DNA of 64,000 nt from Halarcobacter sp. (GCA_048571215.1 CP182352.1:1696001-1760000), one strand, 5' to 3'. Shown: positions 1-26,858, counted from the first letter of the stretch. Notes: generated by a model not told the origin, from the sequence alone. Translations and numbers: made by a program.

Positions 1-45
1 TAACAAAATAATAAATATATCAGGAGAGCATTATCGATAAAAAAT
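1..45 (+). pseudogene. Degenerate intI-like 5' stub with upstream region; module continues beyond the window edge
   Basis: taacaaaataataaatatatcaggag...atcgataaaaaa aligns with taacaaaatgctaaatatatcaggag...atggataagaaa at about 15487-15530; ATG has become ATC. Confidence 0.5.
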
Positions 46-122
46 AAAATATATGCTTGCACTTCTTTGAGAAAAAGTAATTCAAAAGCTACAAATTTTC
101 CCCAAGAAATATTAAGAATCTG

Positions 123-740
123 TTATAATCGTTCACTAAATGCTAGCTTAAGCCCAAGTGCAGCAAAGCTCGTTGCAAAAACTTTTTGTATCAGAATACT
201 AAACCTCTTAGATTTTATAATATACTTGCTAAACAAACCTGATAAAAAGCCATATACAATAAACACAACAAAGGTCATAAGCATAAATACAAAACCTAAT
301 AAAAGCATAATACTCAATGGGTTTTCTACACTACTAGGAATAAATTGAGGAAGAAAAGCTAAAAAGAAAATTGAAAGTTTAGGGTTTAAGATATTTAGTA
401 AAAAACCTTTTATAACAAGATTAAAATAGTTATTATTTGAGTTTTGCTTTGAAATATTTAAAGGTGAAGAAGAGCGCCACATTTGCCATGCTAAATAAAG
501 AAGATAAGCCGCGCCAATATATTTGACAACTTGAAAAGCAAGGGCACTAGTGTGAAATATAGCAGCAAGACCAAAGCTACTAGCTAATAAAGCAGGAACA
601 ATACCTAAAGTACAACCAACTGCTGCAAAGAAACTAGCACGTTTTCCGACAAACAAACCAGTAGCAATAGTATATAAAACCCCTGTACCTGGAATCAAAA
701 CAACTACTAGCGAAGTAAGTAAAAACTCAAAAGATATCAT
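123..740 (-). CDS. LysE family translocator (probable start MISFEF at 740)
   Basis: IPGTGVLY and GFLLNILNPKLSIFFLAFLPQF motifs; stop overlaps TTATAAC as in gene cassettes. Confidence 0.9.
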   Translation of the reverse strand: MISFEFLLTSLVVVLIPGTGVLYTIATGLFVGKRASFFAAVGCTLGIVPALLASSFGLAAIFHTSALAFQVVKYIGAAYLLYLAWQMWRSSSPLNISKQNSNNNYFNLVIKGFLLNILNPKLSIFFLAFLPQFIPSSVENPLSIMLLLGFVFMLMTFVVFIVYGFLSGLFSKYIIKSKRFSILIQKVFATSFAALGLKLAFSERL

Positions 741-895
741 AATATGTTTCCTTTTCTTTTTTTGATACTCTTCATTTTTAGTTTTCATTGTTTCATATAA
801 ACAAATTATACAATTTAAGAGTGTATTATGAGTAAAAAATCACTTAATATTTTAAGGGATAGATTTAAATACAAGTATTTTTAGGTGAATATTAA

Positions 896-1219
896 CTAAA
901 ATAGATCAAATGCAGTATCTATAATAAGATCAAATAAAGCATTCTTGAATCTCTCTAGTCTTACCAAAGCAAGTCCAGATTGCTTTAATGCATGTAATTC
1001 TATCACATCTTTTCTTCCCAAAACAAGCCATTCAAAATCATCATGTGTCAATTCACCTTGTGCAAGGAGCTTTGTCCATCGCTTAAAATCATTTTTAGAT
1101 AACTCAAGAAACTCCTTTGCATCAGTAAGTGCCTCATCCTTGAAACCTTTGAGCATTTTTTTGGCAATCTCTTCTACACCTTCTTGAACTGCTTGTGAAA
1201 AATTATCAAAATTTGACAT
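896..1219 (-). CDS. Hypothetical protein (probable start MSNFDNF)
   Basis: ORF with GGA RBS, 10 bp downstream of the lipoprotein gene. Confidence 0.7.
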   Translation of the reverse strand: MSNFDNFSQAVQEGVEEIAKKMLKGFKDEALTDAKEFLELSKNDFKRWTKLLAQGELTHDDFEWLVLGRKDVIELHALKQSGLALVRLERFKNALFDLIIDTAFDLF

Positions 1220-1229
1220 ATCGATTTTC

Positions 1230-1676
1230 CTAATTATTATTTTCTGGTTTAATCTTACCACTTTCAAGACCAATAATCTGGTCAAAGCCAAGAGAAACAT
1301 TTCTTTTAGTTTCAATAATAAAGATTTTTGAAAGAGTCCCTTTCTCTTTCCAGCGAGCTAAGAAACCTCCCAATAAGTTACGACTAGGGTCTTTCATAAT
1401 TTCCCATTGCTTTGTGACTAATTCATTTTTAGGTCGCCCTTTGGCATATTCATAAGCTTTTTCTACTTTTACTTTCAATCTATCCACGATTATTTTATTT
1501 TTAGAGTATGGCTGTGTTGCTTTATCCATTAACTCTAAGGAATCAACTTTGATAGAAGTTGCATTTTGATAAGCAACTGTGTCATATTTATCAATCAACA
1601 ATGAACAACCACTTATTATGAAAGAAAATAAAATCATCCATATAACTGATAAATTTCTATTAACAATGTAGTTCAT
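1230..1676 (-). CDS. Hypothetical lipoprotein; first gene after an attI-like site
   Basis: Hydrophobic leader ending in ISGC lipobox. Confidence 0.75.
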   Translation of the reverse strand: MNYIVNRNLSVIWMILFSFIISGCSLLIDKYDTVAYQNATSIKVDSLELMDKATQPYSKNKIIVDRLKVKVEKAYEYAKGRPKNELVTKQWEIMKDPSRNLLGGFLARWKEKGTLSKIFIIETKRNVSLGFDQIIGLESGKIKPENNN

Positions 1677-1706
1677 TTTTTTCCTTTTTGATGAGTAGTT
1701 AGATTT

Positions 1707-1735
1707 ACTTAACTATCTATTAAATATACAATATA
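1707..1735 (-). other. attI-like integron recombination site
   Basis: Minus strand ttaatagata-GTTAAGT fits GTTRRRY and has the same context as four other copies. Confidence 0.55.
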
Positions 1736-1910
1736 TGTATTTATCATCTAAAATCCATAATAATTATATATCAGTTTCAGATTCAAAACAATTCCCAACT
1801 TTATAAAAAAGCAACTATTAATATTATATCTAAAATACTTAGAATAATATAAAATTTATAATTATTAAATAAAAATTTTAATAATTATATACTTTAGAAT
1901 TTTATAGCTT

Positions 1911-2070
1911 TTATTCAAATTCAATATTTTCATAATGTGATACACTAAAAGACTCTGCATATTTTTTCATCTCATCTGGAATAATTGCTTGATTCCAATT
2001 CTCACCTGAAAACTCTATAAGGGAAGATTCATCTTCCCATACTGTAACTATTGTATGATTAACCTCTTTA
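1911..2070 (-). pseudogene. 3' fragment of an ABM-type (dimeric alpha/beta barrel) gene
   Basis: Translates EVNHTIVTVWEDESSLIEFSGENWNQAIIPDEMKKYAESFSVSHYE with no start. Confidence 0.55.
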
Positions 2071-7937: not shown

Positions 7938-8384
7938 CCTACCACAAAATCCAGTATTTAGTATAAAAGGACTAATAATAAAACAATATATTAAAAAACC
8001 TATAATTAATACCATTAAAACCAATGCAAAAATAGCTCCGATTCTTGTCATTTTATCACTGCAATATGCTTCATCAGCTATACTTAATGGTGACAAGTAT
8101 TCTAACCCATACTCCAAAACTATATATGTTATTATTGTACCTACAATTGCCACTAAAAAAGAACTTGTAATATAGTTTAAAAAAAAACCAATAAGTAATA
8201 TCCATACAAGCTCTATGAATAATAAACCAGATAAAATAAATAAAATAAAATTCTTATTTTTTTTAATTTTTTCATTACAATTTGGGCATTGAAAACATTT
8301 GATAAAAGTTCCAGATGGAGATTTATTAAAAATAATCCATTTAAGGGGTATTGATTCTTTTCCACAATTAGGGCACAATTTCAT
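7932..8384 (-). CDS. Zn-ribbon membrane protein (gene cassette)
   Basis: Two CPNC motifs and TM segments; stop within R''. Confidence 0.75.
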   Translation of the reverse strand: MKLCPNCGKESIPLKWIIFNKSPSGTFIKCFQCPNCNEKIKKNKNFILFILSGLLFIELVWILLIGFFLNYITSSFLVAIVGTIITYIVLEYGLEYLSPLSIADEAYCSDKMTRIGAIFALVLMVLIIGFLIYCFIISPFILNTGFCGRA

Positions 8385-8554
8385 AATTTACCTCATACTA
8401 TTACGATTGACTTCAGTGACTCGATGTATTCACTGCTAGGAGACTGTGAAAGAAGTCAATTTTAATATATATAATATTCTACATAAAAACACCTAAAAAT
8501 AATCATTCTAAAAATACTAAAATATTATAATATATTATATTTTAAAGGTGATTT

Positions 8555-8581
8555 ATGGGTAAAAAACTACTTGATAAATGA
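8555..8581 (+). pseudogene. intI-like 5' stub MGKKLLDK*
   Basis: AAGGTG RBS; KKLLD motif shared with other stubs; repeat follows. Confidence 0.55.
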
Positions 8582-8590
8582 TTGACATCA

Positions 8591-8690
8591 GAAACAATAA
8601 ATAAACACTCGGCTTCTCAAATGTGGGAAAGTGGGAAATTGACCTTTGCATTTTTTGATACCATTTTATTTGAATTGGTGTAATACTCAA
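8591..8690 (+). repeat. Structured repeat copy 1 (partial)
   Basis: aataaacactcggcttctcaaatgtgggaaagtggg...ggtgtaatactcaa. Confidence 0.85.
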
Positions 8691-8724
8691 TTTATACAAA
8701 GAAAGTTTGCAGCTAGTGTATTTA

Positions 8725-8887
8725 GTCCAGACTTTGTTGAAGCCGAAAGTTTTCTAATTATTTTCGGAGAAGACCGAGGACCGTTCAACTGGATAAAAGG
8801 TACTGAATGTACCTTTTAGGAAGGCGTTCCGCAGGTCAGGAAATAATTATAAAACTGTAGGGAACTTTAGCTTCAACAACCGTCTGG
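8725..8887. repeat. Large nested hairpin element
   Basis: ccagactttgttgaagc...gcttcaacaaccgtctgg with inner aaaaggtac-tgaat-gtacctttt. Confidence 0.7.
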
Positions 8888-9058
8888 TTGCTTTTTGTCT
8901 TACTTTTTACAACTAAAAAGTGAGAAAGCGAAGAACTTGTTCTTTAAGACAATTGCATACAATAAAAACTATTATCAAAATATTTGAGTATAAATAAACT
9001 TTTACTATACGTCTTAATTTCTATCGACTTTCTTTTGTGAAAAAGAAAGTAGCAAAGA
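8880..9058 (+). repeat. Left arm of structured repeat copy 2 (interrupted by IS110)
   Basis: Aligns with 25320-25520 and in part with 18706-18800. Confidence 0.8.
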
Positions 9059-9107
9059 AGTTGCCACCTTAAAAAATGATAAAATATAAAATATTTAAAT
9101 CTAATAT

Positions 9108-10091
9108 TTATGATATACTTTTAAATTTATTAGGGTCATATATATTATTATTTTTATATAATGAGTGAGCAATTACAATCATTTTTCGCATTACAGCAAT
9201 TTGTGCTACAGTAGTATGTTTGCCATTCTCTTTTAATCTATTATAAAATATTTTTAATTCTTCATTGTATTGTATCGCTGTCATTACTGCCATAAATAAT
9301 GTACCCCTACATAATTTTGAACCAGATTTTGATATTTTTGTTTTTCCTTTTATTGATGAACCAGAATCTCTACTAACTGGATCTAATCCAGCTAATGAAA
9401 CAATTTGCTTTTGATTTGTATCAGGATATTGTATAAAATGGTGTAATAATATAATTGAAGATAATTCTCCTATGCCTTTTATAGTTTGGATATTTAAAAA
9501 TGCATTATGTAAATTTTTGTCTTTTGCAATAACTTTTTTTATCTCAATAAGAATATCTTTTTCTTTTTTTTCAAATGATTTTATATCTTTTCTTAATGAT
9601 TTAATTATAATAGATGAAGCATCTTTTGAAACTAAAGCTTCCAAATGATTTTTATTTTGAGTTTTAATTTTTGATATAAATTTATAATATGTAATAAGCT
9701 CTTTTAATTCCTCGGCATAAGGATTAATAATGGGTATTTTAATCTGATTTTTTCTTGCAGTAACTATCATCTGAGATAACATTCTAGCATCTAAAAGGTC
9801 AGTTTTATTTCTTTGACCAATTGCTTTAGCAAAGTTAGCACTTTTCTTTGGATTAACAATAAAACAGTGTATACTTTTTTCAGAACAAAACTTTTTAATT
9901 AAAAAGGAATAATTAGCTGTAGGTTCAAAAACAAATACAAGTTTATCTATATCTTTTTTATAAAGTTTTTTTAACTTAGAATAAAAACCTTTAAGTGATT
10001 TCAAATTATTTGATATTTGAATATCTAAATCATTGATAGGGATATAAATATTAATTGTTGACTTACTTATATCTAATCCGATAGAATACAT
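9108..10091 (-). CDS. IS110 family DEDD transposase/recombinase
   Basis: GLDISK, FEPT, KTDLLDA, IKGIG, AGLDP..RDSGSS and AVMRKM motifs. Confidence 0.95.
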   Translation of the reverse strand: MYSIGLDISKSTINIYIPINDLDIQISNNLKSLKGFYSKLKKLYKKDIDKLVFVFEPTANYSFLIKKFCSEKSIHCFIVNPKKSANFAKAIGQRNKTDLLDARMLSQMIVTARKNQIKIPIINPYAEELKELITYYKFISKIKTQNKNHLEALVSKDASSIIIKSLRKDIKSFEKKEKDILIEIKKVIAKDKNLHNAFLNIQTIKGIGELSSIILLHHFIQYPDTNQKQIVSLAGLDPVSRDSGSSIKGKTKISKSGSKLCRGTLFMAVMTAIQYNEELKIFYNRLKENGKHTTVAQIAVMRKMIVIAHSLYKNNNIYDPNKFKSIS

Positions 10092-10109
10092 ATCTAGAAC
10101 CTTTGTATT

Positions 10110-10345
10110 AATATAAAGAGTTCGTTAGGGTAGGAATAAAATTCCTACCTGATATTTCGTCATACAAACTTTAGACTCGTAAATACGAACTAGTTATAAA
10201 ACTGTTCTTGTTGCCACTCAAATTTGAAGTATAACTATTGAACTTCTTTACAAGCTAATTAAAATTATTTTTAATTGCTTCAACCACCCACACAATATAT
10301 CATCTTCTATTGAACTCTATGAAAATATACTATCATATTTCCAAT
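10110..10345 (-). ncRNA. Putative IS110 bridge RNA
   Basis: Two stem-flanked internal loops whose strands match the target and donor junctions; TATAAT at the element end (10351-10356); boundaries approximate. Confidence 0.7.
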
Positions 10346-10358
10346 ATTTTATTATACG

Positions 10359-10631
10359 AACCATCCCACAGGTTTCGAAGGTGAAACTACTCTCGCTTAT
10401 TATTCATCCCTTTTGAGTGCCTAAAAACTTGCTAAAACGTTCTCCCAGAACGTTTCTTTAGGCTTCAAACAGTTTAGTCACTTGTTTTCAAAAGAGATAA
10501 ATAAACACTCGGCTTCTCAAATGTGGGAAAGTGGGATAAGGACCTTTGCATTTTTTATACCATTTTATTTAAGCTGGTGTGATACTCAATAATTATTATA
10601 AAATGTGGAGATTCAACTTCTGGGGTGTTAC
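10359..10631 (+). repeat. Structured repeat copy 2 (hairpin and tail)
   Basis: cccacaggtttcgaag...cttctcaaatgtggg hairpin and gtggagattca...ggggtgtta tail. Confidence 0.9.
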
Positions 10632-10663
10632 TTTAGAAGTATCTATTTTTAATAGAAAGATGT

Positions 10664-10704
10664 AAAAGAGAAAAAGAGGAATCAAACTTTCCTTTTCTCT
10701 TTTT
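10664..10704 (-). terminator. Probable intrinsic terminator
   Basis: aaaagagaaaaagagga...ttccttttctcttttt inverted repeat after the haem-binding gene. Confidence 0.5.
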
Positions 10705-10736
10705 TATAATAATTAAATAAATTGTTTCAAAACTTA

Positions 10737-11317: not shown

Positions 11318-11330
11318 AGATAGTAGATAA

Positions 11331-15207: not shown

Positions 15208-15222
15208 GTCTGTCCTTCGTAT

Positions 15223-15894: not shown

Positions 15895-15895
15895 A

Positions 15896-15922: not shown

Positions 15923-15940
15923 TTATTAATACTTGAAGAG

Positions 15941-16381
15941 TCAACTCCAAGATTGAATTTCTATAATATTTCCTTCTATATCTCGTAAATATGTAAATTT
16001 TAACAGTCCAACACCTTCAACTTCATTTTCAATAACTTCACCTAATGTTGTTGCTCCATTTTTTAAAGCTTTTGTTAGTATTTCATCTACATTATCCACT
16101 TCAAATGCAATATGTGTAAAACCAATTTGATTAGCCATAATTGGATTTGTATCTATAAACTTTTCATAACTAAATATTTCTAATGTTGGAGGGTTGTCAT
16201 ATCCAGGCAAGGATAAATGAACACCCATTTGTCTAGCATTTTTAATTCCTATAGCTTTATCTAACCATTCACCCTTTAAATCTCTTTCAGGTGGTTTAAT
16301 TTTGCATTCAAAAACTTTAATATAAAAATCTGCTAATGCTTTCCAATCTCTTGCTGCTATGTTTGTATGTGCAAATCTCAT
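15941..16381 (-). CDS. VOC/glyoxalase family protein (cassette)
   Basis: HTNI, GFTHIAFEV and RDIEGNIIEI motifs. Confidence 0.9.
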   Translation of the reverse strand: MRFAHTNIAARDWKALADFYIKVFECKIKPPERDLKGEWLDKAIGIKNARQMGVHLSLPGYDNPPTLEIFSYEKFIDTNPIMANQIGFTHIAFEVDNVDEILTKALKNGATTLGEVIENEVEGVGLLKFTYLRDIEGNIIEIQSWS

Positions 16382-16403
16382 TTATTATTTTCCTTTTACT
16401 TTA

Positions 16404-16474
16404 GTCTAACGTTTAAGTTGAGAAATAGTTTTGCCCGCTAGGGTAAACTATTTCTCTCCAAGGTTTTATTATAA
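16404..16474 (-). other. attC site (R'' AAC changed to AAT)
   Basis: ttggagagaaatagtttaccc-tagc-gggcaaaactatttctcaacttaaac GTTAGAC. Confidence 0.8.
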
Positions 16475-16476
16475 TC

Positions 16477-16809
16477 TTACTTTATACCCCTAATCATTTT
16501 ATCTTCATCAATTTCATCCTGAATATCTTCTGTAATTTCTCTATTATAATAATTACTAATTGTATTAGCTTGATCAACAATCATGTCAATTTTTTCTTCA
16601 TATTTTTCTGTATTTAAATCTTCGATTTTAAAATTTAAAAAATCAGAACATAAATCACTTTCTAGACCCAAGTGATCATCGTGAAATGCATATACATGTT
16701 CAGAGTTACCTCTTTTTACAATTTCTTGAACAGTATTGTATTCTTTTGGAGAATCCTCATCTTGATTTAAATCATTTATTACATCATGGATATTTTTTAA
16801 CTTCTTCAT
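16477..16809 (-). CDS. Acidic hypothetical protein (cassette; probable start MKKLKN)
   Basis: AAGGA RBS; lies between two attC sites. Confidence 0.7.
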   Translation of the reverse strand: MKKLKNIHDVINDLNQDEDSPKEYNTVQEIVKRGNSEHVYAFHDDHLGLESDLCSDFLNFKIEDLNTEKYEEKIDMIVDQANTISNYYNREITEDIQDEIDEDKMIRGIK

Positions 16810-16874
16810 ATATTGAATCCTTTTGTTGTTTATTTTATATATTTTAGCTAATTTTACTTGGTATTTAAATTTAA

Positions 16875-17009
16875 TTATAACGTTGGACTTGAAAAACAAG
16901 GAGGATGATAGCACTTGATTATTTCAGTTCTCATTTTAGCTATTTTGTTCTAAAAAGTTTATACTAACCGCAGTATACCCTTGTTTTTCTTTCCAATGTT
17001 TTGTTATAT
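16875..17009 (-). other. Long attC site
   Basis: ATATAAC aaaacattggaaagaaaaacaagg...ccttgtttttcaagtccaac GTTATAA. Confidence 0.85.
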
Positions 17010-17012
17010 ATT

Positions 17013-18410
17013 TTAAAAACCAAGATTGAAATCATCAATTAAATCAATGATTACATCAGATGGATCATCATTTTTATATTTTCTCAAAAGCATTTCTCTT
17101 AAATGCTCGTTGTTTAAAAAAATAATTAATTTGTTTTTTTCTATAAAAATATCTTTTCTTTTCTCAATGCCACTTTGATTTGGAAGTTTTTTACTACATA
17201 TGATTCCAAATCTACCAATTGTTTGCTTTAAATAATCATCAATTTGAAGCAATACAGATTTGTCAATTTCACTTCCATTTTTAGAATAGTTTTTAAACTC
17301 AAACACTATATATTTTGCATCATAGTCATCCCTAATAAATTTCCAATTTTCATTACTATTTCGATTGGGATATATAGCATCTCTTATATCAATACCAGAT
17401 TCCCTCCGTGATTGTATTTTAGGTTTGCCAAGTGGTGGTACAAATAAGTAATTTAAAATATCTACACAAATATCTTCATATATTTTCCAACCTTCTTTTC
17501 CTTCTGGACATTCATCTAATCTTTTGATTAATTTTTGTATATTTTCTAACTCTTTATCAATTAATTTAATTTTTTGTTTTTTTGTAAAAGTTTTTTTATT
17601 GAAATATTCTTTTATTAAATGAGGGTGTGAAAAAAGTTTTTGAATTAGTTTATGTCTATCCCATATAATAATATTGGAGGTATTTTGCACTAAAAAATCA
17701 TGAGAACTTTTAGTAATTTCAGAATTTGTAATAAGTAAAATATTATTAGCTTTTTCGATAGTTGAAATTCCAATTAATTTCCTTAATACTTCAATTGATA
17801 TTTTCTGATTTTTATAAAACCTAGCTTCAACTATTGTTTTTTCCTCAATACCTAGTATATTTTTTGTCTTGGTTATAAAATCATACCCACCATCTTTTGT
17901 GGGTGGAGTTCTTTTTACTTCAAAATTTTCTGATAAAAGAAGATCATACACTAAATTTTCAAACTTTCTCCCATCAAAACTTGACCAATCTTGTAATTCA
18001 TAATCTACATTACCAGTTTGTAGTAATGCCTTTTTTAGAATATCTAAACCAATTTCTTTATTTTTTGAAAAATCAGCATATAAGTAATTAGATAAATCAT
18101 ATGGGATTGTTGAATTGTCAATTTTAATTGGTAGAATTTTAATGCCTCTATTACTGGCATTTTGTAATAAAGCAGAATTTAGTTCGTATTGCATCCATTT
18201 TGAAGTTAAAGAAGAATTACTTAACACAAAAATAAACGCATTGCTAGATTCAATACCAGATACAATTTTATCTTGAATACTATCACCGAGTTGAATCTCT
18301 TTTTGATCATACCAAATATCATAATTAGTATCTTGTAAATTTGCATTAAGCCATTCAACAAATTCTTTATCTTCATGTGAATAACTAATAAAAACTTGTT
18401 TCTTCATCAC
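17013..18410 (-). CDS. TIR domain plus Mrr-like restriction endonuclease protein (cassette)
   Basis: VFISYSHEDK and SKWMQYEL TIR motifs; FE..V..L and DGGYD..VEAR nuclease motifs; second D..FEFK motif at the C-terminus. Confidence 0.85.
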   Translation of the reverse strand: MMKKQVFISYSHEDKEFVEWLNANLQDTNYDIWYDQKEIQLGDSIQDKIVSGIESSNAFIFVLSNSSLTSKWMQYELNSALLQNASNRGIKILPIKIDNSTIPYDLSNYLYADFSKNKEIGLDILKKALLQTGNVDYELQDWSSFDGRKFENLVYDLLLSENFEVKRTPPTKDGGYDFITKTKNILGIEEKTIVEARFYKNQKISIEVLRKLIGISTIEKANNILLITNSEITKSSHDFLVQNTSNIIIWDRHKLIQKLFSHPHLIKEYFNKKTFTKKQKIKLIDKELENIQKLIKRLDECPEGKEGWKIYEDICVDILNYLFVPPLGKPKIQSRRESGIDIRDAIYPNRNSNENWKFIRDDYDAKYIVFEFKNYSKNGSEIDKSVLLQIDDYLKQTIGRFGIICSKKLPNQSGIEKRKDIFIEKNKLIIFLNNEHLREMLLRKYKNDDPSDVIIDLIDDFNLGF

Positions 18411-18423
18411 TTTCCTTATCTAT

Positions 18424-18452
18424 ATATAACTATTTATTGAATATACATTATA
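18424..18452 (-). other. attI-like site
   Basis: tcaataaata-GTTATAT; 7-mer complementary to this cassette's R''. Confidence 0.7.
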
Positions 18453-18705
18453 TAAATAAAGTACTTAAATCCACTACTTTATTATATATTTAGTAGAAAA
18501 GCTTATTTCATGCATCTTTATAGAGGAATATTACAAAATACAATATTTTTTCTATATATTTTTATTATAAGTTATAATTTTTATATATATTTAATGTCGA
18601 TATTTGGAACTTTTATATATATAATGTATGTTAAAAGTGAAAATTTAACTTTAAATAACATTTTGATTATTTAACAAAATGATAAATATATTATGTGTAT
18701 TTGGA

Positions 18706-19070
18706 TAATACTATTATCAAAATATTTGAGTGTAAACTAACTTTTGCTGTACGTCTTAACTTATTCCGACTTTCTTTTATAAAAAAGAAAGTAGCAAAGA
18801 AATTATCCCGCAGGTTTCGAAAGTGAAACTTCCCTCGCTTATTATTTCACTTTTCTGTTTTTCAAAACTCGCTAAAACGTAAGTTAGTTACGTTTCTTTA
18901 CGCTCTAACAGTTGAAAAACTTTTCCGAAAAGCAAAATAAACACTCGGCTTCTCAAATGCGGGAAAGTGGGATAAGGACCTTTGCATTTTTTTATACCAT
19001 TTTATTTTAATTGGTGTGATACTCAACAATTATTATAAAAGTGGAGATTCATTCTCTGGGGTGTTATTTT
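18706..19070 (+). repeat. Structured repeat copy 4
   Basis: Part of left arm, hairpin and tail. Confidence 0.9.
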
Positions 19071-19077
19071 AAAGCAA

Positions 19078-19277
19078 CTATAAACAAATGTATAGATGGA
19101 ACATGAAACTATTATCGATGATTATACTACTAAAATGAATACAAAAAAAGCAAGAGATATAGTTAGAAAAAGAGCTTCAATTGTAGAGCATCCATTTTGC
19201 AAGTGTGAATTCCATTTCACTTCATGGTACAATAAAAAGAACTTTAGGTTGGGATCATTTTTTAGTAAGAGGAAAAC
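19078..19277 (+). pseudogene. Transposase fragment, IS1182-like C-terminus
   Basis: RKRASIVEHPF, 28-bp insert, then GTIKRTLGWDHFLVRGK. Confidence 0.7.
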
Positions 19278-19480
19278 AAAAGGCAAGCATACAACAGCTG
19301 TTCAAATTGCACTTATGCGAAAAATGATAATTATTGCACATTCTTTATATAAAAATGACATACAATATGACAAAGATTTTTATAAAAAAAGTTGTGGATT
19401 TCAAGAGTAGAAAACTACTCTTGATTTAAGAAATTGATTTAATTAAAATTTATAAATTTCAAGTTTTTTTAAGGTGGCGA
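19278..19480 (+). mobile_element. 3' remnant of a second, diverged IS110
   Basis: GKHTTAVQIALMRKMIIIAHSLYKN resembles the C-terminus of the intact copy; ends ttttttaaggtggcgact like the intact IS end. Confidence 0.8.
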
Positions 19481-19495
19481 CTGTTCCCTTATTTT

Positions 19496-21208
19496 TTATT
19501 TTCTTATTTTTGATATTGCCTTGATAACACTGCATTTAGTATTATTTTTAATCCATTCCGCCTTACTTGCCCAAAGTGCTTGACATACTCCATATATTTG
19601 TAAGTTTTCATTTTGTATATCGTCACTTTTCTTTTTTATCTTTTTTAAAAAATTAAACTTGTCCTGGATACGCTTTTTACATATCTTTGAATAAGGAACA
19701 CCTTCACATACGTTTTGTGCTTTTTTTTCTATCAGAGTTTCGGCCTTATTTCTTAATTCTTTTATCTCCTTTGGAAATAACTTTAAATCTTCAAATTGTC
19801 TAATATAAGTCATTATACTTATATTTAAATTCATTTCATGTGCTTTTTGTGCAGTATCTAATCCCATGCTAGAAAGTTCATAAGATGTATAATTTGGATA
19901 CATGGATGTGTAGTCATATTTTGCTGCACAAAATTGATTATTTATAGGGTTCTTAGGTATTAGAATTGAGTTTGATATAAGACCATTTTTTGAATTTTCT
20001 TTTGAATTTTCTTTAGTGCTTTCTAATGTTCTAATCTCATTTGGATAATCGGTAATTGAACCAACGTTTATTTCAATGATTTTTTTCTCTTTAGTACTAT
20101 CATTAACTTTAATTTCTACGGTTCTATTATCATCAACATAGCCTAAATGTGTATGTGCGGAAATGTATCCCAACGCATATTGACTTTTGAATATTTGTTT
20201 AAACTGATCCAATAATTTTGGTTCAAATTCACTTAATGGATGATGTCCAAAAACAATAAAATATTGTTTATTAATCTCTAAATTTTTTACCCATTTTTTA
20301 ATCTCATCCATTTGATCAACTGTTATACCTGCCGTCATTCCTGGATTACGATTTTTTCCATAATGTCGTTTTGAACTTATTGCACCATAAAAATTTAATG
20401 GTTTATTCTTATAATTTGCAGTATCTATTACAATACCCTTGAGGGAACCTTGTTCTGTTTCTTTAGATAAATTGATACGTTGAAGTATAAATGATTTATA
20501 ATTATCTTCTTCTGCTTTAAACCTCTTAACATATATTTTGTCAATTAAAGCATTAAAGCTTTTCTCTTCATTTATATTTTTATCTTTATATTTATCTGAA
20601 TTAAGTATAAATTCTAAATACTTATTTATAAATTTTCCTTTTGTCATTCTTGATGATAAATATTCACTCTTTGATACATTCTTCTCATCATAAATAGATT
20701 TATCATAACAAGATTTTCCCCACTGTAGTTTTATATTATTCGTATAACCAGCAGTTGTACCGAACCAAAAAAAGTCATGATTGCCAGGAGCCATAACAAA
20801 TTTATCTTTGTTTTCGGCAAGTAAATCACTAAAGGTTTTCCATTCATTTTCACAAGCAATATTTAGTGCATCCCCTAAATGAATGATATTTTTTTTCTTA
20901 GCATCTTCTTGTTTTAAAACCCATTTAAATAAATATTCAGAATATATATCAAGCTGAGGAGGTCTAATAGCTACGCTTGATGGTATCTCTGCATATTGAT
21001 TCCTCATTATTGATGGATCTGTAAAGATATTACTAAATTGGTTATCTCCTATCAAAAGAACATCATGTTTTAGATCAAAGCTAGTAAAACCAAGGGTTTG
21101 CTTTGAAACAACATTCCGGTTTTTATAGTTTATATCTAATGCTTTTGGAGCACATCCTGTATAAAATACTATAGCTATAATTAAAGTGATATATTTTTTT
21201 CGTTGCAT
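19496..21208 (-). CDS. Metallophosphoesterase lipoprotein; first gene after an attI-like site
   Basis: YTGC lipobox; GDNQ, HLGD, PGNHD, GHHP and AHTH motifs. Confidence 0.85.
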   Translation of the reverse strand: MQRKKYITLIIAIVFYTGCAPKALDINYKNRNVVSKQTLGFTSFDLKHDVLLIGDNQFSNIFTDPSIMRNQYAEIPSSVAIRPPQLDIYSEYLFKWVLKQEDAKKKNIIHLGDALNIACENEWKTFSDLLAENKDKFVMAPGNHDFFWFGTTAGYTNNIKLQWGKSCYDKSIYDEKNVSKSEYLSSRMTKGKFINKYLEFILNSDKYKDKNINEEKSFNALIDKIYVKRFKAEEDNYKSFILQRINLSKETEQGSLKGIVIDTANYKNKPLNFYGAISSKRHYGKNRNPGMTAGITVDQMDEIKKWVKNLEINKQYFIVFGHHPLSEFEPKLLDQFKQIFKSQYALGYISAHTHLGYVDDNRTVEIKVNDSTKEKKIIEINVGSITDYPNEIRTLESTKENSKENSKNGLISNSILIPKNPINNQFCAAKYDYTSMYPNYTSYELSSMGLDTAQKAHEMNLNISIMTYIRQFEDLKLFPKEIKELRNKAETLIEKKAQNVCEGVPYSKICKKRIQDKFNFLKKIKKKSDDIQNENLQIYGVCQALWASKAEWIKNNTKCSVIKAISKIRK

Positions 21209-21225
21209 TTTTTTCTCCTATAAAT

Positions 21226-21255
21226 ACTTAACTATTTAATAATAATACATTATAT
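21226..21255 (-). other. attI-like site
   Basis: attattaaata-GTTAAGT. Confidence 0.65.
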
Positions 21256-21466
21256 ATATTTATTGCTTAATTATCTCAACTACTAGATATTTACATAAAA
21301 TATCCTTAAAATAGGTATTCAATGAAAGTTTATTACAAAATGTAATATTTTTGAATTGATTTTTTATTTTTAATTATAATTAAAATATATATTTTTTGTC
21401 TAAATAACTGTAATAACAATACACTATGTATGTTAATTGGAAAAAAACATAATAATACTGATACAA

Positions 21467-21508
21467 ATGACTAAAAAATTACTTGATATTATGAGGAATA
21501 AATTCTAA
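21467..21508 (+). pseudogene. intI-like 5' stub MTKKLLDIMRNKF*
   Basis: Same truncation junction as the other 13-codon stubs. Confidence 0.65.
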
Positions 21509-21855
21509 ATATTCACTTTTTGCCTGCAAGCAGGATTACATATTGAAAAAAGTAAAATAAAAATAACCCGCGGGTTTCGAAGATGAAACTTCCCTCGTTT
21601 ATTATTTATTGTTTCTGTTTCGTCTTGTGCTTGCACTCTCTTTGAGAAAACTCACATAAAAATATGCTCCTAGCATATTTGTTCTGTTCAAACAGTTACA
21701 AAACTTCTCCGAAACAATAAATAAACACATGGCTTCTCAAATGCGGAAAAGTGGGATAATGACCTTTACTTTTTTAAGTATCATTTTATTTTAGTTGGTG
21801 TAATACTCAACAATTATTATAAAAGTGGAGATTCATTCTCTGGGGTGTTATTTTT
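21509..21855 (+). repeat. Structured repeat copy 5
   Basis: Hairpin and tail with two mini-inserts. Confidence 0.9.
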
Positions 21856-21886
21856 TTCTATATATTTTTATAGTTTAGGAGATATT

Positions 21887-21928
21887 ATGGGTAAAAAACT
21901 ACTTGATATAATAAAGGATAAATTTTAA
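21887..21928 (+). pseudogene. intI-like 5' stub MGKKLLDIIKDKF*
   Basis: AGGAG RBS; same junction. Confidence 0.65.
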
Positions 21929-22153
21929 ATATTCACTTTTTTGCCTGCAAGCAGGATTAGATATTGAAAAAAGTAAAATAAAACCATCCCACAGGTTTCG
22001 AAGATAAAACTTCCCTCGCTTATTATTTATTGCTTCTCAAATGCGGGAAAGTGGGATAATGACCTTTGCATTTTTTGATACCATTTTATTTTAGTTGGTG
22101 TGATACTCAATAATTATTATAAAAGTGGAGATTCATCCTCTGGAGTGTTATTT
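21929..22153 (+). repeat. Structured repeat copy 6 (hairpin interior deleted)
   Basis: ttatttattg joined directly to cttctcaaatgcggg. Confidence 0.9.
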
Positions 22154-22173
22154 AGTTTTAACAAAATATAATA

Positions 22174-22680
22174 TTAGGATTTATTAATTTTAGATTTAAC
22201 TTTATTAATAAATTCTTCAACATTACCTTCAAGTATATTTCTACATTTTGGAACAATATGTGCACCTCCCAAAGTATTACTTACTAAGATAAAATAATGT
22301 TTTTTTGACTCTACTACTTTAGTTATTGCTGATAAATCATATATAGTTTCATTAACATCTGTCAATTCTTTAAATTTATCTCCATCAATAATTAAAGTAT
22401 GTTCACAAAGTATTCCTTCACCTTTATATAATAAAGCAATAATTCCAGATAAAATAAAACTGATTATAGCCATTACCAATATAAATACTACAATTTGAGA
22501 TAAAATTGAACCTATAATAAATATACTTGAATATCCATCATTAAGCATTTTTAAAAATGACCATACTAAAAAAATAATTAAAACAAAAATTATAGATATC
22601 ATAATGGATTTAATCATAAATATTGACCTAATTTGATAATTAAATAAATCTTTTCGTGTATTTATGTATTTTATTTTCAT
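22174..22680 (-). CDS. YcxB-like membrane protein
   Basis: Two TM segments; C-terminal I.KVVESKKHYFI and AHIVPK pattern. Confidence 0.7.
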   Translation of the reverse strand: MKIKYINTRKDLFNYQIRSIFMIKSIMISIIFVLIIFLVWSFLKMLNDGYSSIFIIGSILSQIVVFILVMAIISFILSGIIALLYKGEGILCEHTLIIDGDKFKELTDVNETIYDLSAITKVVESKKHYFILVSNTLGGAHIVPKCRNILEGNVEEFINKVKSKINKS

Positions 22681-22883
22681 TTAAATATTCCTTTATAAAA
22701 GATTTTACTATGATTGCTTATTAATGCATAAAACTTTAATACTAAGTTACCATATAATTATTATCATTATTTTAGTACTTTTAATCTTAATAGATATTAA
22801 ATTAGGACTAAATAGATTTATAATATGTCTTTAGAGTATTAGGTTTAAATGAATTAGTATCTAAAATACCACAAAACTATTAG

Positions 22884-22900
22884 TTTTTAAGGTGGCAACT
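22884..22900 (+). mobile_element. Isolated IS110 3'-end motif
   Basis: tttttaaggtggcaact is the reverse complement of 9059-9075. Confidence 0.5.
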
Positions 22901-22907
22901 GACCCAT

Positions 22908-22992
22908 ATTTTCTTTTAGTTGGTGTGATACTCAATAATTATTATAAAAGTGGAGATTCAACCTCAGGGGTGTTATTTAGGGGTGTTATTTT
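22908..22992 (+). repeat. Structured repeat copy 7 (tail only, 13-bp terminal duplication)
   Basis: aggggtgttattt occurs twice, 22966-22991. Confidence 0.85.
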
Positions 22993-23001
22993 CAAGGTTC
23001 T

Positions 23002-23682
23002 TTAAAGTTTAATTGCTTTTGTAATAGCAAAATTATACATTCTCCAATAACAAGCACTTTGTTGAAACCCAACTTCTTTTAACCAATCAAAATGATTTGA
23101 TAAAATAATTGGAAAATCTTTTTCAATATGTTTTTCATACCAAAACTCTGGGTTTTCACCTTGCTCTTTCATAAACTGTTTCCAAAGAGAATATTGATGT
23201 TCTCTAACCTCTTTATCTTCATCTATGATAATATCATTTGAGATATAAACTGCATTTTGATTTGCACTATTAAAAAGTTTTTGATAAAAAACTTTTCTCT
23301 CTTCCCAATTTAGATGATGTAGTGTCATACCTGTTAAAATTATATCGTATGATTTTCCAATTGAATCTATTTTATAATCCCCTTGGATCAATTCATAGTT
23401 TTTTGTATATTTTGATATTTTTTGTTCATAAGCTTTTAGCATTTCAGTAGTAATATCAAATCCAGTGATATGTGAATTTGGAAGTTTCTTTAAAACAATT
23501 TCAGACAATATACCATTACCACAACCTAAATCCAATACTTTATAATTTTTACTTTTATTGTTTGGTAATAAATCAAATATGATTTTATGTTGTTCTAAAT
23601 ATTGTGGAACCAATCTTATCATCAATGCTTCATAATCAGAAGCTTGTTGTGCAAAATGTTCTTGTATATTTATATCTTTCAT
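23002..23682 (-). CDS. Class I SAM-dependent methyltransferase (cassette; probable start MKDINIQ)
   Basis: VLDLGCGNG and LHHL motifs; GAGGA RBS overlaps the attC core. Confidence 0.9.
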   Translation of the reverse strand: MKDINIQEHFAQQASDYEALMIRLVPQYLEQHKIIFDLLPNNKSKNYKVLDLGCGNGILSEIVLKKLPNSHITGFDITTEMLKAYEQKISKYTKNYELIQGDYKIDSIGKSYDIILTGMTLHHLNWEERKVFYQKLFNSANQNAVYISNDIIIDEDKEVREHQYSLWKQFMKEQGENPEFWYEKHIEKDFPIILSNHFDWLKEVGFQQSACYWRMYNFAITKAIKL

Positions 23683-23688
23683 TTTATC

Positions 23689-23744
23689 CTCTAACGCCTC
23701 AATCAGCCGATGCATTAGCGGTCGGCTGAATTGATTTGTTAGCG
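23689..23744 (-). other. Short canonical attC site
   Basis: CGCTAAC aaatcaattcagccgaccgctaatgcatcggctgattgaggc GTTAGAG. Confidence 0.93.
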
Positions 23745-24172
23745 CATGTAGCTTTAGTAACGAATTCAAAACCAAATACAACACAAAAAGACATCAGCAA
23801 CCAAACAAGCCATTTAAAGAAATTTTGCACCAAGACAACGTGAATTGGATTTCCAACCACATAATCCATAATTGGCTGCCTAAAAAACGCACCATGGATA
23901 GCCATAAGCAAGACAGAAAATACTAAGGCCGCTTTAAATTTACCAAAACCAATTAGCTTATTGCGGGCAAGATAATATAGTGCTATTGCAGCTATCCCGT
24001 ATTCCAGAGAAGTAACTCCAGCAATATAGCGAACATCCCAAGACGGCTGAATTGATAGCCCCTGCATCTGACTACTAATCCAAGAGGGAAGCCATTCTAC
24101 GGTTGCTACATGAACAATGAAACTAGTTGCAGAGGCAACTACAGCAACGATAAAAATAAGAAAAAATTTCAT
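23699..24172 (-). CDS. Hypothetical membrane protein (GC-richer cassette)
   Basis: Four hydrophobic segments; ORF reads through the attC (ANKSIQPTANASAD). Confidence 0.8.
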   Translation of the reverse strand: MKFFLIFIVAVVASATSFIVHVATVEWLPSWISSQMQGLSIQPSWDVRYIAGVTSLEYGIAAIALYYLARNKLIGFGKFKAALVFSVLLMAIHGAFFRQPIMDYVVGNPIHVVLVQNFFKWLVWLLMSFCVVFGFEFVTKATCANKSIQPTANASAD

Positions 24173-24185
24173 AACTCTCCTTGCG

Positions 24186-24213
24186 TGCTAACTATTTATT
24201 AGTACTATATTAT
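24186..24213 (-). other. attI-like site
   Basis: actaataaata-GTTAGCA. Confidence 0.75.
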
Positions 24214-24481
24214 ATATAAATAATATATAAATTCACCTAATAGCACTACATTTTTTATGATAAGATACTAAATTGCTATAAAGCCCTTAAATAAGCTATT
24301 TTTAGTATTATTTAAATAATATATTACAATATGTAATATTTTATAAACCTAAATTGTATATTTGATATAATTTTTAATGTTAGACTATTAACGTATATCC
24401 GTAATAGCTTATCAAAATGTTATGCTATTGATTAAAAATCGTAATAGTTTAACAAAATGCTAAATATATCAGGAGTAAAAA

Positions 24482-24523
24482 ATGGATAAGAAACTACTAG
24501 ATATTATGAGTGATAAATTCTAA
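24482..24523 (+). pseudogene. intI-like 5' stub MDKKLLDIMSDKF*
   Basis: Identical to 15519-15560. Confidence 0.65.
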
Positions 24524-24806
24524 ATATTCACTTTTTTATTGAAAAAAGTAAAACAAAAAGCAACCCGCGGGTTTCGAAGGCAGAAGCTCCCCTCGCTTAT
24601 TATTTATTGTTTCTGTTTTGTAAAACTCACATAAAAATATGCTCCTAGCATATTTGTTCTGTTCAAACAGTTACAAAACTTTTCCGAAACAATAAATAAG
24701 CACTCAGCTTCTCAAATGCGGGAAGGTGGGAAACTGACCTTTGCATTTTTTAGTACCATTTTATTTTAGTGGGTGTGATACTCAACAATTATTATAAAAG
24801 TGGAGA
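24524..24806 (+). repeat. Structured repeat copy 8
   Basis: Hairpin and tail, truncated at gtggaga. Confidence 0.9.
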
Positions 24807-24807
24807 C

Positions 24808-25161
24808 TCATTCTTTATAGTTTATTTTTTTATAATAACCTGCATTCCTCAAATCATTTATTCTAAATATTAGTACATAATATAAAGATGGCATTACTGA
24901 TACTATATAAACTGCAAAAATTAAAAATAGATAAAAATTTGAGCTATTTATTAAAGTTCTATAAGTATTTATTAAATAAAAGAGAGGATAAATACTAATT
25001 AAACTATAAATAAGATATATAATAAAACCTAAAAAAGTAACAAAATTTTTTTTAAATTTTTTTATTTTTATTAAAAAGTATACATATATTTTAGATATTA
25101 TTAAAAGTAAAACACTTGATATAATTATAAATATAATTAACTCTAATATATTCTCTATCAT
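24808..25161 (-). CDS. Hypothetical membrane protein
   Basis: AAGGTG RBS; hydrophobic and very AT-rich. Confidence 0.6.
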   Translation of the reverse strand: MIENILELIIFIIISSVLLLIISKIYVYFLIKIKKFKKNFVTFLGFIIYLIYSLISIYPLFYLINTYRTLINSSNFYLFLIFAVYIVSVMPSLYYVLIFRINDLRNAGYYKKINYKE

Positions 25162-25246
25162 TTTTCACCTTTGCATGGACAATAATATCAAAAATAATTA
25201 TATTAATAAATAAAGTGATGTTATAAATATTAGATTTTAATTTTAA

Positions 25247-25322
25247 TCAAGGCGAAGTGAAAATTTTAAGAGGAGCGTACATGCAAGTACATGAGTATTA
25301 AATTTTTTACTTCCAACAACGC
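25247..25322. repeat. Palindromic element (CAAGGCG...GAGCGTAC/GTACATGA...CAAC type)
   Basis: aagtgaaaatttta...taaattttttactt stem; related to 26739-26858. Confidence 0.6.
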
Positions 25323-25788
25323 GTCTGGTTGCTTTTTGCCTTACTTTTTAGAACATGTAATCCTGCTTGCAGGCAAAAAAGTGAGAAAACGGAAAGCCTC
25401 GCTCTACAAGACAACTGCATACAGTTAATACTATTATCAAAATATTTGAGTATAAATAAACTTTTGAAGTACGTCTTAACTCTTCTCGACTTTTTTTATG
25501 AAAAAAAAGTAGCAAAAAATCACCCGCGGAGTTTTGGAGGTGAAACTACCCTCGCTTATTATTTATTGTTTCTGTTTTGTAAAACTCACATAAAAATATG
25601 CTCCCAGCATATTTGTTCTGTTCAAACAGTTACAAAACTTCTCCAAAACAATAAATAAACACTCGGCTTCTCAAATGCGGGAAGGTGGGATTATGACCTT
25701 TGCATTTTTTTATACCATTTTATTTTAATTGGTATAATACTCAACAATTATTATAAAAGTGGAGATTCATCCTCTAGGGTATTATTTT
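25312..25788 (+). repeat. Structured repeat copy 9 (longest uninterrupted copy)
   Basis: Left arm, hairpin and tail. Confidence 0.9.
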
Positions 25789-26431
25789 AATATTTATAAA
25801 TATATTTAGGTAAAAAAATGAAAATCAAATAATTAAGTATAAAAAGTATACATGCAGGCAACATTGAAATAATAAAAAAAAGCCCACTAAAACAGCCACT
25901 TCCACAAGTGTTTCCTTCATACCAAAGATATAATGCACCTAAGGTGGGGAGAATAGATAAAATAAATAAAAATTTTCCAAAAAATAAATATTTATTTTTC
26001 TTTTTTAAAATATTATATATTTTATAAGAAGGTATTAGTGGTATTAAATGTGCTAATACCAATACAAAAGTAAAAAAAAACATAAACTCGGATTTAATTA
26101 TAAATAAAAAAGGAAAACTCAATAATATTGCAATTAAAAAATAGTATAAAACGAATTTATAATTAATTTTTTCTTTCTTAATACTAATATAATTATTCAC
26201 TTTATATATTTTATTATCTAAAATTAATGTTTTTTCAGTTAATAAAATATAATCATTAATTGTATCATAATAAAAACTTTCATCATTTTCTACGATAAAG
26301 ACAATTTTATTATATAAATTAGTTTCATCAACAGCTAAATATGGGTAGTTTTTCTTAATCTCATCTTCAACTGATAATGGACTTTTTTTATTATTTAATA
26401 ATATAAGTTTTATTGTATCTCTTAAATTCAT
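25787..26431 (-). CDS. Hypothetical membrane protein
   Basis: 214-aa ORF with four C-terminal TM segments. Confidence 0.65.
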   Translation of the reverse strand: MNLRDTIKLILLNNKKSPLSVEDEIKKNYPYLAVDETNLYNKIVFIVENDESFYYDTINDYILLTEKTLILDNKIYKVNNYISIKKEKINYKFVLYYFLIAILLSFPFLFIIKSEFMFFFTFVLVLAHLIPLIPSYKIYNILKKKNKYLFFGKFLFILSILPTLGALYLWYEGNTCGSGCFSGLFFIISMLPACILFILNYLIFIFLPKYIYKY

Positions 26432-26738
26432 AGTATTCTTTTTTAAAAATCATAAAAAAGATTATAATATATATGCTCTAAAATATTATTGAATTGTAAA
26501 AAACATCATCCATTTTTACTTTAAAATTGAGATTATAATGCCACTAAAAATTAAGACAAGAATTTTAAAAGATTAATCTCAAAAATAATTAAAGTTAATT
26601 TATGAATTTCCATTTTCATACCTTTTTAATTTAAATTAGTAAATTATAATTAAAATATTTATAATAAAAAATATATATTACAATATGCAATAAAAAGTGA
26701 TGTTAGAAATTTTAAGTTTAGTTAATTAAATAATATAG

Positions 26739-26858
26739 AAAGCTTTAGAATTTAAAGAGGCAAGGCAGGCAAGTTTTTAGAGGCAGGAGCTTACAAGTAG
26801 TAAGTGACTGTCTCTAAAAATGAAGCTGAACGAAGCATATTTAAAAAGCTAAAGCTTT
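26739..26858. repeat. Palindromic element directly after the guaB stop
   Basis: aaagctttag...ctaaagcttt outer stem; tttttagaggcag...ctgtctctaaaaa inner stem. Confidence 0.7.

Follow-up and report, generated by a model that had tools for sequence, protein, structure and literature searches.

Integron front ends without an integrase gene, and an associated structured repeat, downstream of guaB in a Halarcobacter-like bacterium

The window analyzed here is a stretch of 64,000 nucleotides (nt), corresponding to bases 1696001-1760000 of the complete, single-contig 3.61-Mb genome of a marine Halarcobacter-like bacterium (G000), and coordinates given without another label are positions within it. 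The region under study (1-26858) lies downstream of guaB (26859-28304, minus strand; Pfam IMPDH, 2e-160), the anchor gene of the locus, and its genes are nearly all on the minus strand, many being small and without a Pfam family; the others include genes for a metallophosphatase, a methyltransferase, a glyoxalase-family protein, a 991-amino-acid (aa) ELWxxDGT repeat protein, and a TIR-Mrr fusion. Integrons are described as consisting of one integrase and one attI site per cassette array, with only the first few cassettes being expressed. This region holds five integron front ends and a degenerate sixth, referred to as orphan platforms, which are made up of an attI core, a TATAAT box facing the cassettes, and a spacer of ~250 nt, with a stub of the first 8-13 codons of the integrase gene intI found at five places; next to the array, intI is represented by these stubs only. 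Relatives of G000 are designated G0xx, and the genus set comprises 25 genomes, namely G000 and 24 congeners.

The only integron integrase of G000 above the family cut-off is encoded at 895245-896189 of the genome, ~800 kb from the window (TIGR02249, 398 bits versus a cut-off of 265; no stops), and the front end of this gene is taken as the genuine platform. A profile spanning attI to the stub matched the plus strand at 1700-1994, 15208-15563, 18408-18699, 21212-21511, and 24174-24526; since it was built from the window copies and the genuine platform, independent tests carry more weight. In blastn comparisons with the genuine platform, the alignment of the 15.2-kb copy extended from attI across the first ~58 nt of intI, with 67% identity over 362 nt (E 3e-33), and the 24.2-kb copy was 66% identical over 360 nt (E 2e-32), with E values of 3e-14, 4e-9, and 3e-9 for the 18.4-, 21.2-, and 1.7-kb copies, respectively. 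Furthermore, the 15.2-kb copy is 91% identical to platforms of G017 and G008, and the G017 locus keeps a near full-length intI. The five attI-like cores of the original prediction, which had been made from the sequence of the region, were thereby borne out, and the cores, spacers, and stubs do align with the attI-intI 5′ regions of intact integrons.

An alignment of nine sequences, including platforms of three relatives, showed conserved blocks at the core (AACTAT.T..T), at ATACATTATATATA (the TATAAT box on the cassette strand), at a spacer palindrome (ATTACAATATGTAAT), and at a box facing intI (TGATATAAT) followed by a ribosome-binding site and the stub; the longest invariant run covers the core AACTAT and the ATTATATAT block. 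The attI crossover core reads …AATAG|TTA…, and the TATAAT box, the presumed cassette promoter (Pc), lies 17 nt before the G|TT crossover and is conserved in every platform. Each core is situated 10-25 nt upstream of a minus-strand start codon, consistent with the expectation that the cores precede minus-strand genes, and the attI part of the layout appears to be that of a complete integron, with attI upstream of and divergent from intI and the first cassette joined at G|TT. The spacer palindrome occurs in all platform lineages (15352-15372, 18535-18555, 21330-21350, and 24315-24335) and, being located beside the -10 box facing intI, is a candidate operator for integrase control.

The intact IntI protein begins MGKKLLDIMKDKIRF, and the five stub open reading frames (ORFs) of the window share that form; a pattern search located their starts at 8555, 15519, 21467, 21887, and 24482, with the general form M-KKLLDI-DKF followed by a stop. 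Platform 1 (1700-1994, plus strand; profile E 2e-39) contains an attI core at ~1709-1725, a minus-strand TATAAT box, and a partial spacer, is without a stub, and forms a long branch in the platform tree, with a best identity of 54%. Platform 2 (15208-15563, plus strand; blastn and stub pattern) has its core at ~15223-15240, followed by the spacer and a stub ORF at 15519-15560 (MDKKLLDIMSDKF and a stop). In platform 3 (18408-18699, plus strand; profile E 4e-40), the core at 18426 and the spacer are followed by a degenerate stub without an ORF. Platform 4 (21212-21511, plus strand; profile E 3e-48), with its core at 21228 and a stub ORF at 21467-21508 (MTKKLLDIMRNKF and a stop), shares 90% identity with the platform of the G006 guaB locus. 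Platform 5 (24174-24526, plus strand), with its core at ~24186 and a stub ORF at 24482-24523, is collinear with the 15.2-kb copy. With respect to the suspected sixth site (8385-8581, plus strand), a degenerate attI-like core (ATACTATTACGATTG, near 8395), a short spacer, and a stub ORF at 8555-8581 (MGKKLLDK and a stop) were found, and the platform profile missed it at E ≤ 1e-4.

Four of the five platforms run into the same co-oriented repeat, designated E1, as had been predicted, the 1.7-kb copy being the exception. E1 has a core of ~260 nt, with 59 nhmmer matches in the genome, 33 of them strong. The stub is fused to E1 at one identical junction, the rest of intI being replaced by E1. Two 5′ forms exist, namely form A, with a ribosome-binding site, an intact stub ORF, and an A/T hairpin, and form B, with a degenerate stub without an ORF, as in platform 3; at the 3′ end, a short form ends in a tail with TATAAT, and a long form continues into a second repeat, E2, to give tandem units of ~612 nt. 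An extra unit without attI (21887-22155) is composed of a stub ORF (21887-21928, plus strand; MGKKLLDIIKDKF and a stop) and a short E1 (21962-22155) that is without the central domain and folds on the minus strand.

The structure of E1 is supported by covariation. In a consensus from 39 aligned copies (31 from this genome and 8 from relatives), 97.7% of the cells at 30 pairs are paired, and 76 cells are changed on both sides, compared with 27.8 ± 6.2 in shuffles (0 of 500 reaching the observed value); when the same pairs were slid by 1-3 columns, at most 52.6% were paired. Read on the minus strand, the pair cells contain 164 G-U versus 13 A-C combinations, and in 32 of the 39 copies folding energy is lower for the minus strand. 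E1 therefore folds on the cassette-sense strand, antisense to the stub; z-scores for folding of a single E1 (-1.4 on the plus and -2.2 on the minus strand) are not decisive. The view of the repeat as a mere separator between modules is accordingly too modest for an element that folds opposite to the stub and is fused to intI at one fixed junction. A TATAAT sequence lies ~7 nt before the first E1 base and was read by eye as a promoter, without being singled out by a generic scan. Neither E1 nor E2 matched Rfam 15 at the gathering score in the 64 kb, and at E ≤ 1 the only match in 1-27000 was a chance-level miRNA outside E1. No reverse transcriptase (PF00078) was detected in the complete genome, and E1 is accordingly not assigned to the retrons, group II introns, or reverse transcriptase-linked noncoding RNAs. 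Derivation of E1 from decayed intI was considered and rejected, with tblastn and sensitive blastn of the long-form unit against IntI and the platform giving nothing better than E 0.13. As for a conserved protein partner of E1, none emerged from seven small ORFs beside platforms and E1 copies: they have no homologues in 14 loci of relatives (12 of them downstream of guaB), each lacks another full-length copy elsewhere in G000, and one of the seven is a fragment of IS110.

The attC sites of the window are fewer than was first thought. A covariance model (R1) was built from 18 attC sites of this genome, all outside the window, where a clear class of ~65 nt occurs; 88.6% of the pair cells of these sites are paired, with 38 cells changed on both sides (0 of 500 shuffles reaching the observed value), and the model gave 43 matches at E ≤ 1e-3 in other loci, including relatives outside the training set and the 135-nt attC of the genuine array. 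The sole intact site in the window, at 16403-16474 on the minus strand, was not in the training set and scored 69.8 bits (E 4e-15) over the full model length. Three further sites are 5′ halves ending near the loop (~13 bits, not significant), among them that of the glyoxalase cassette (GTCTAACAAATCATTGGAGAGAAATATT; 15895-15921, minus strand; nhmmer model positions 2-28; 13.3 bits, not significant), which directly abuts an E1 tail, and that behind the TIR-Mrr gene (16985-17008, minus strand; nhmmer model positions 2-25; 12.8 bits). A long attC-like site behind the 991-aa gene (12078-12205, minus strand), starting with GTCTAAC and ending with GTTAAAA, was recognized by eye and is absent from the covariance-model matches at E ≤ 10. 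Because only one site is significant and three others are cut off near the loop, the window array is more decayed than the first reading, with three cores heading cassettes with clear attC sites, had suggested; among the attC candidates of the window, 16403-16474 held up under covariance scoring and the rest were not significant. A simple attC finder based on AAC/GTT ends and folding was dropped as non-discriminating, as it returned 19 minus-strand versus 21 plus-strand candidates and missed the real site.

E1 could also be imagined as a recombination site itself, that is, a giant attC-like hairpin used by IntI or another recombinase, with the modules as its products. E1 occupies an attC-like place behind cassette genes, has conserved base stems and an exchangeable central domain resembling the variable part of attC, and is targeted by an IS110-family element. 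However, attC acts through its bottom strand whereas E1 folds on the cassette-sense strand; moreover, E1 is without AAC…GTT end boxes, is not scored by model R1, and contains breakpoints that lie mid-sequence, making this explanation highly improbable.

The architecture, described for this locus in the original prediction, is not confined to it. The genome contains 19 platform copies, 18 of which are orphans, in about ten loci; a co-oriented E1 follows 15 of the 18 orphan platforms within 5-102 nt, and for 30 of the 33 strong E1 copies a platform is no more than 7 kb away. The combined module is present in 20 of 24 congeners, and outside the genus short stretches only were found, in 3 of 16 genomes. 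Matches to the platform alone were obtained in 14 of 24 congeners, with 10 in G002 and 5 each in G003, G012, and G017. A collection scan for a 23-nt E1 core returned two metagenome-assembled genomes (MAGs) only, and E1 is confined to one genus in the collections searched. IntI is intact in 7 of the 25 genus genomes (G000 included), broken in 5, and not found at E ≤ 1e-30 in 13. A possible, though doubtful, reading is that E1, the intI stub, attI, and Pc form a multi-copy integrase-free module copied around the genome and between species, with one integrase serving many docks and E1 being a new structured RNA of the module. E1 might then insulate, pair in antisense with the 5′ end of intI, or provide the homology handle by which the module moves, and, if this were true, many cassettes would stand in the expressed first position with a single integrase for many docks.

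The guaB-downstream region also varies among relatives, as a comparison proposed in the original prediction showed. guaB was recovered from 24 of the 25 members of the genus set, G000 among them. Of 12 guaB-downstream loci of relatives, 6 have a platform (one a fragment only), 2 have E1 only, and 4 have neither. The G015 locus consists of attI, an intI pseudogene in three frames, and then guaB, and in G011 and G024 the platform abuts guaB without E1. In G006 and G012, the order guaB, E1, stub, attI, and a model-supported attC represents a single module of the kind stacked in the window. The region downstream of guaB is a recurrent chromosomal integron site of the genus, and the locus studied here an old integron site.

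A maximum-likelihood tree of 32 platforms placed the window copies in four places, three in starred clades with other species or loci and one, the copy at 1700, on its long branch. Copies 15208 and 24174 group with G008 and G017, copy 18408 with two other G000 platforms, a MAG, and G012, and copy 21212 with the G006 guaB locus. The window copies thus belong to at least four platform lineages, in line with the earlier idea that segments of several integrons are gathered here. The stretches 15225-15644 and 24188-24607, each of 420 nt, are collinear and differ by 9 mismatches; their similarity breaks off precisely at CTAAC (read as G|TTAG on the cassette strand) at one end and in the middle of E1 at the other, where two central-domain types follow. 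Likewise, the platforms at 18408 in the window and at 963097 and 1464819 of G000 share the same derived form-B junction with its degenerate stub, and three different sequences come directly after …AATAAATAGTTA(G), that is, AGTTA(G). More generally, E1 copies are mosaics in which central domains are swapped between otherwise near-identical copies, indicative of frequent homologous exchange. With different first cassettes on sister platforms and the break at G|TT, these breakpoints are as predicted for integrase action at attI, in trans, together with homologous exchange inside E1, and would argue for both. They constitute the main support for activity after integrase loss and leave the events undated.

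The identical stub-E1 junction has a second possible origin, namely that E1 is a site-specific mobile element, REPIN- or MITE-like (MITE, miniature inverted-repeat transposable element) and moved by a RAYT-like Y1 transposase or another enzyme, which repeatedly destroyed intI 5′ ends independently, the stack being a by-product. At least three platform lineages share this junction and also hold intact or near-intact intI, and stub codon 10 of the 15.2-kb copy matches the intI of its own lineage in G017, although gene conversion reaching to where homology ends would account just as well for lineage-specific stub codons. E1 is strand-specific, like elements active as single-stranded DNA; REP-like GGGGACAGGCACCTTT motifs adjoin the one Y1_Tnp gene of the genome, and a similar hairpin occurs in E1; and in G011, a deletion that arose independently likewise has an end near codon 13. 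Yet no 3′ remainder of intI was found beyond any E1, IntI searches having returned the intact gene only; the tandem units carry the degenerate stub, implying that stub and E1 spread as one piece; and no terminal inverted repeats or target duplications were seen in an alignment of 25 E1 copies with flanks. Because of the missing intI remainder and the stub carried along in tandem units, one old fusion followed by gene conversion is favored over repeated targeting by a mobile E1, which we regard as quite unlikely. A Y1 (IS200/RAYT-like) transposase gene, the only one in G000, lies at 2560379-2560910 with GGGGACA…CACCTTT motifs just upstream, and similar motifs are found behind cassette genes of the window (~19470-19495 and 22885-22905) and inside E1.

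Loss of intI has followed independent routes in the genus, including a 23-nt palindromic insert (G015 and G017, at the same codon), an internal deletion in G008, a deletion after ~codon 13 in G011, and the fusion to E1. In the G008 locus L067 (9863-10027), an in-frame mini-ORF joins intI at ~codon 50 to its last ~8 codons at a short GAAAT repeat. The insert of G015 and G017 (CTCAAAGAGAGTGCAAGCACAAG), which contains a palindrome, splits intI between the same two codons and shifts the frame (~19370-19395 of L055 in G015 and ~9204-9226 of L068 in G017); it is also found at various positions in E1 and E2 copies, in the window at 15671-15693 and 21624-21646, and genera elsewhere in the order contain exact matches of 28-31 nt.

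Such decay raises the alternative that the modules are dead relics, that is, that an old integron decayed, its front end was copied by ordinary segmental duplication and homologous recombination, and the block was kept as a promoter for island genes, with no integrase acting now. The single intact and three truncated attC sites of the window, the many independent ways in which intI decays in the genus (inserts, internal deletions, and loss), the 5 of 25 genomes with broken and 13 of 25 without intI, and the frequent exchange recorded by the mosaic E1 copies all speak for this. On the other hand, sister platforms break at the G|TT crossover rather than at random, the crossover core itself, and not only the -10 box, is invariant in the nine-sequence alignment, other orphan platforms of the genome precede cassettes with high-scoring attC sites, and an intact IntI is present; complete inactivity is thus judged unlikely.

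The account that we consider probable is that a chromosomal integron downstream of guaB decayed into a row of integrase-less front ends. The intact IntI encoded at 895 kb would act in trans on the orphan attI sites, and several genes would therefore stand in a promoter-proximal, first-cassette position. The stack would have grown through the linking of segments from platforms of several lineages, with exchange at the attI crossover at one end and homologous recombination inside E1 at the other. The earlier suggestion that attI docks remain for an integrase in trans accordingly gains an intact IntI, a conserved TATAAT box, and sister platforms with different first cassettes, while the action in trans stays conjectural. 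E1 supplies portable homology and is not a recombination site. Its nature is the least certain part of the account; most likely it is a mosaic intergenic repeat comparable to BOX, ERIC, and BIME, rich in hairpins and transcribed, and it may mark or insulate the upstream end of each platform.

Several observations weigh against this account. A promoter scan of 15150-16000 found 9 sites versus 6.8 ± 3.0 expected, and the promoter roles are consensus assignments. With filters off, the whole 64-kb window yielded the one significant attC at 16403-16474, so that the array could represent a fossil instead of a functional dock. Identity between the genuine platform and the window copies is only ~60-67%, and recognition of the latter by the 895-kb IntI is therefore a prediction. 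Across the genus, the number of platforms does not follow the presence of an intact IntI: there are 5 platform matches in G012, which is without intI, and none in G019 and G020, in which intI is intact. Finally, the breakpoints could predate integrase loss in some lineages, and the upstream junctions of the modules are heterogeneous (truncated attC, gene ends, and an IS relic), suggesting no single clean mechanism.

Among known systems, the closest category is the cluster of attC sites lacking an integron-integrase (CALIN), or decayed sedentary chromosomal integron, a cassette array without an adjoining integrase, with IntI elsewhere in the genome and loss of intI as the presumed origin. In contrast to CALINs, attI, the -10 box, and the first 13 codons of intI have been kept and multiplied here (18 copies per genome, with 5-6 in one array), and the window holds one attC supported by our own model, R1, which is below the two-attC definition of a CALIN; other loci of the genome have the two sites. 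In the part of the CALIN survey drawn on here, half of CALINs are in genomes with IntI, C-terminal intI pseudogenes were found near 15 of 279 CALINs in a pseudogene search that used the C-terminal domain, and attI is given as unknown for most integrons and was matched for classes 1-3 only; multiplied attI-promoter-stub modules are not mentioned in that part (Cury et al., 2016; PMC4889954). The literature covered, from which most subscription journals were absent, yielded no account of how Arcobacteraceae integrons are built, of multiple attI sites, or of E1.

Comparison with the attI sites of class 1-3 and Vibrio integrons shows a shared arrangement, in which the G|TT crossover immediately precedes the first cassette, is divergent from intI, and adjoins a cassette promoter; the window sequence is unrelated to them, and attI is defined here by homology to the genus's own intI loci only. 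In integron mobilization units (IMUs), which are MITE-flanked truncated class 1 integrons, a short noncoding repeat adjoins a truncated integron and the repeats bracket cassette-bearing segments. The window resembles IMUs only loosely, in having a noncoding repeat that adjoins a truncated integron and repeats on either side of cassette-bearing segments; unlike in IMUs, the E1 copies have one orientation and one fixed side, the intI side, are fused at one junction inside intI, and show strand-specific pairing without visible terminal inverted repeats or target duplications. Bracketing MITEs, invoked earlier as a partial precedent, were not seen. The pneumococcal BOX, enterobacterial ERIC, and BIME/REP repeats occur in tens of copies, are modular with optional modules, and form long imperfect hairpins. 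E1 is similarly multi-copy, modular, and hairpin-rich, is an IS110-family target, and coexists with a RAYT-like gene in the genome, but unlike those repeats it is tied to one context, that of integron platforms. Overall, the locus is of the decayed chromosomal integron or CALIN type with a previously undescribed companion repeat, E1.

Eighteen attI-promoter modules and one integrase in a single genome constitute a natural test of IntI action on distant attI sites, of how CALINs arise and whether they stay active, and of multiplied attI as a route to the expression of more cassettes. In addition, attI sequences are supplied for a phylum with none described, and E1/E2 represent a covariation-supported, strand-specific repeat family outside Rfam with a very tight genomic association.

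The gene for the ELWxxDGT repeat protein (12232-15207, minus strand; TIGR04534, 443 bits) is the first behind the attI at 15223, and the TIR-Mrr_cat fusion (17013-18410, minus strand; Pfam TIR_2, 3e-30, and Mrr_cat, 4e-20) is the first behind the attI at 18424. The latter matches 23 PADLOC families (best 5e-24) and is defense-like, which fits with chromosomal integrons as stores of defense cassettes. In the genuine integron, a GC-rich, ORF-less cassette of 186 nt with a long inverted repeat occurs twice (896493-896678 and 898384-898569 of the genome; 99.5% identical), one copy being the very first cassette behind attI. A second attI within that array, at 904.7 kb, was rejected, as it contains only the promoter-like part, with AATAATTA replacing the core, and has no stub. 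Metagenome contigs covering 8000-27000, from 4 runs (2 samples of 1 study), break at every repeat, and the sides of their joints (21-58 nt, mostly ≤32 nt) fit repeats elsewhere and are unreadable as cassette or module rearrangements.

The E1 copies of the region are all on the minus strand. Going toward guaB, they comprise a partial copy at 8583-8690 (model positions 154-261; nhmmer E 2e-31), a copy at 10340-10635 (the part beyond the insertion sequence described below, with a short promoter-like tail; nhmmer E 8e-76), a copy with a short tail at 15568-15895 (nhmmer E 3e-79), one at 18773-19072 (nhmmer E 1e-72), one with both small palindromic inserts at 21542-21855 (nhmmer E 2e-58), a remnant with the tail and the first ~35 nt only at 22908-22980, preceded by two direct TAACACCCC repeats, a copy at 24531-24830 whose central-domain type differs from that of the 15.6-kb copy, and the copy nearest guaB, of 5′ form B, at 25494-25789 (nhmmer E 5e-60). 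E2 (8739-8920, plus strand) is a diverged, shorter relative of E1 in the opposite orientation, detected as a weak inverted nhmmer match to model positions 3-187; it forms a long imperfect hairpin on its own strand (alifold, -57 versus -33 kcal/mol for 17 copies), and in the favored orientation the 17 copies contain 122 G-U versus 16 A-C combinations.

An IS110-family element (8926-10360, minus strand, approximate boundaries; transposase at 9108-10091) is inserted in E1 between AGCAAAGAA and CCATCCCACAGG, and its family assignment is supported by NF033542 (159.9 bits versus a cut-off of 140) and by Pfam DEDD_Tnp_IS110 (PF01548) and Transposase_20 (PF02371). Insertions of this family, which uses an RNA-guided transposase, occupy the same E1 position in four copies (8926-10360 and, in G000, ~1467.5, 2521.4, and 2826.5 kb), and in alignment A2 the same IS110 flank is carried by 4 of the 31 rows that represent E1 of G000; E1 is therefore a preferred target. 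A further IS110 fragment lies at 19096-19410. A second small hairpin insert (GCCTGCAAGCAGGATTACAT) is found in either orientation in the 5′ hairpin or central domain of E1, at 21517-21537 and 21938-21958 in the window and at 963603-963625 of G000.

The short tail of E1 (TAACACCCC.GAGGATGAATCTCCAC followed by TTTTATAAT; 22950-22985 in the window) is also present without E1 at 9 or more sites, including G000 positions 548517, 809296, 810127, 2554854, 2557863, and 3396737, often after 2-3 direct TAACACC repeats, and looks like a regulated promoter module. Directly behind guaB, an inverted repeat of ~120 nt (TAGAAAGCTTTAG … CTAAAGCTTTCTA) occupies 26720-26858, and its inner part is kept at the same place in G011.

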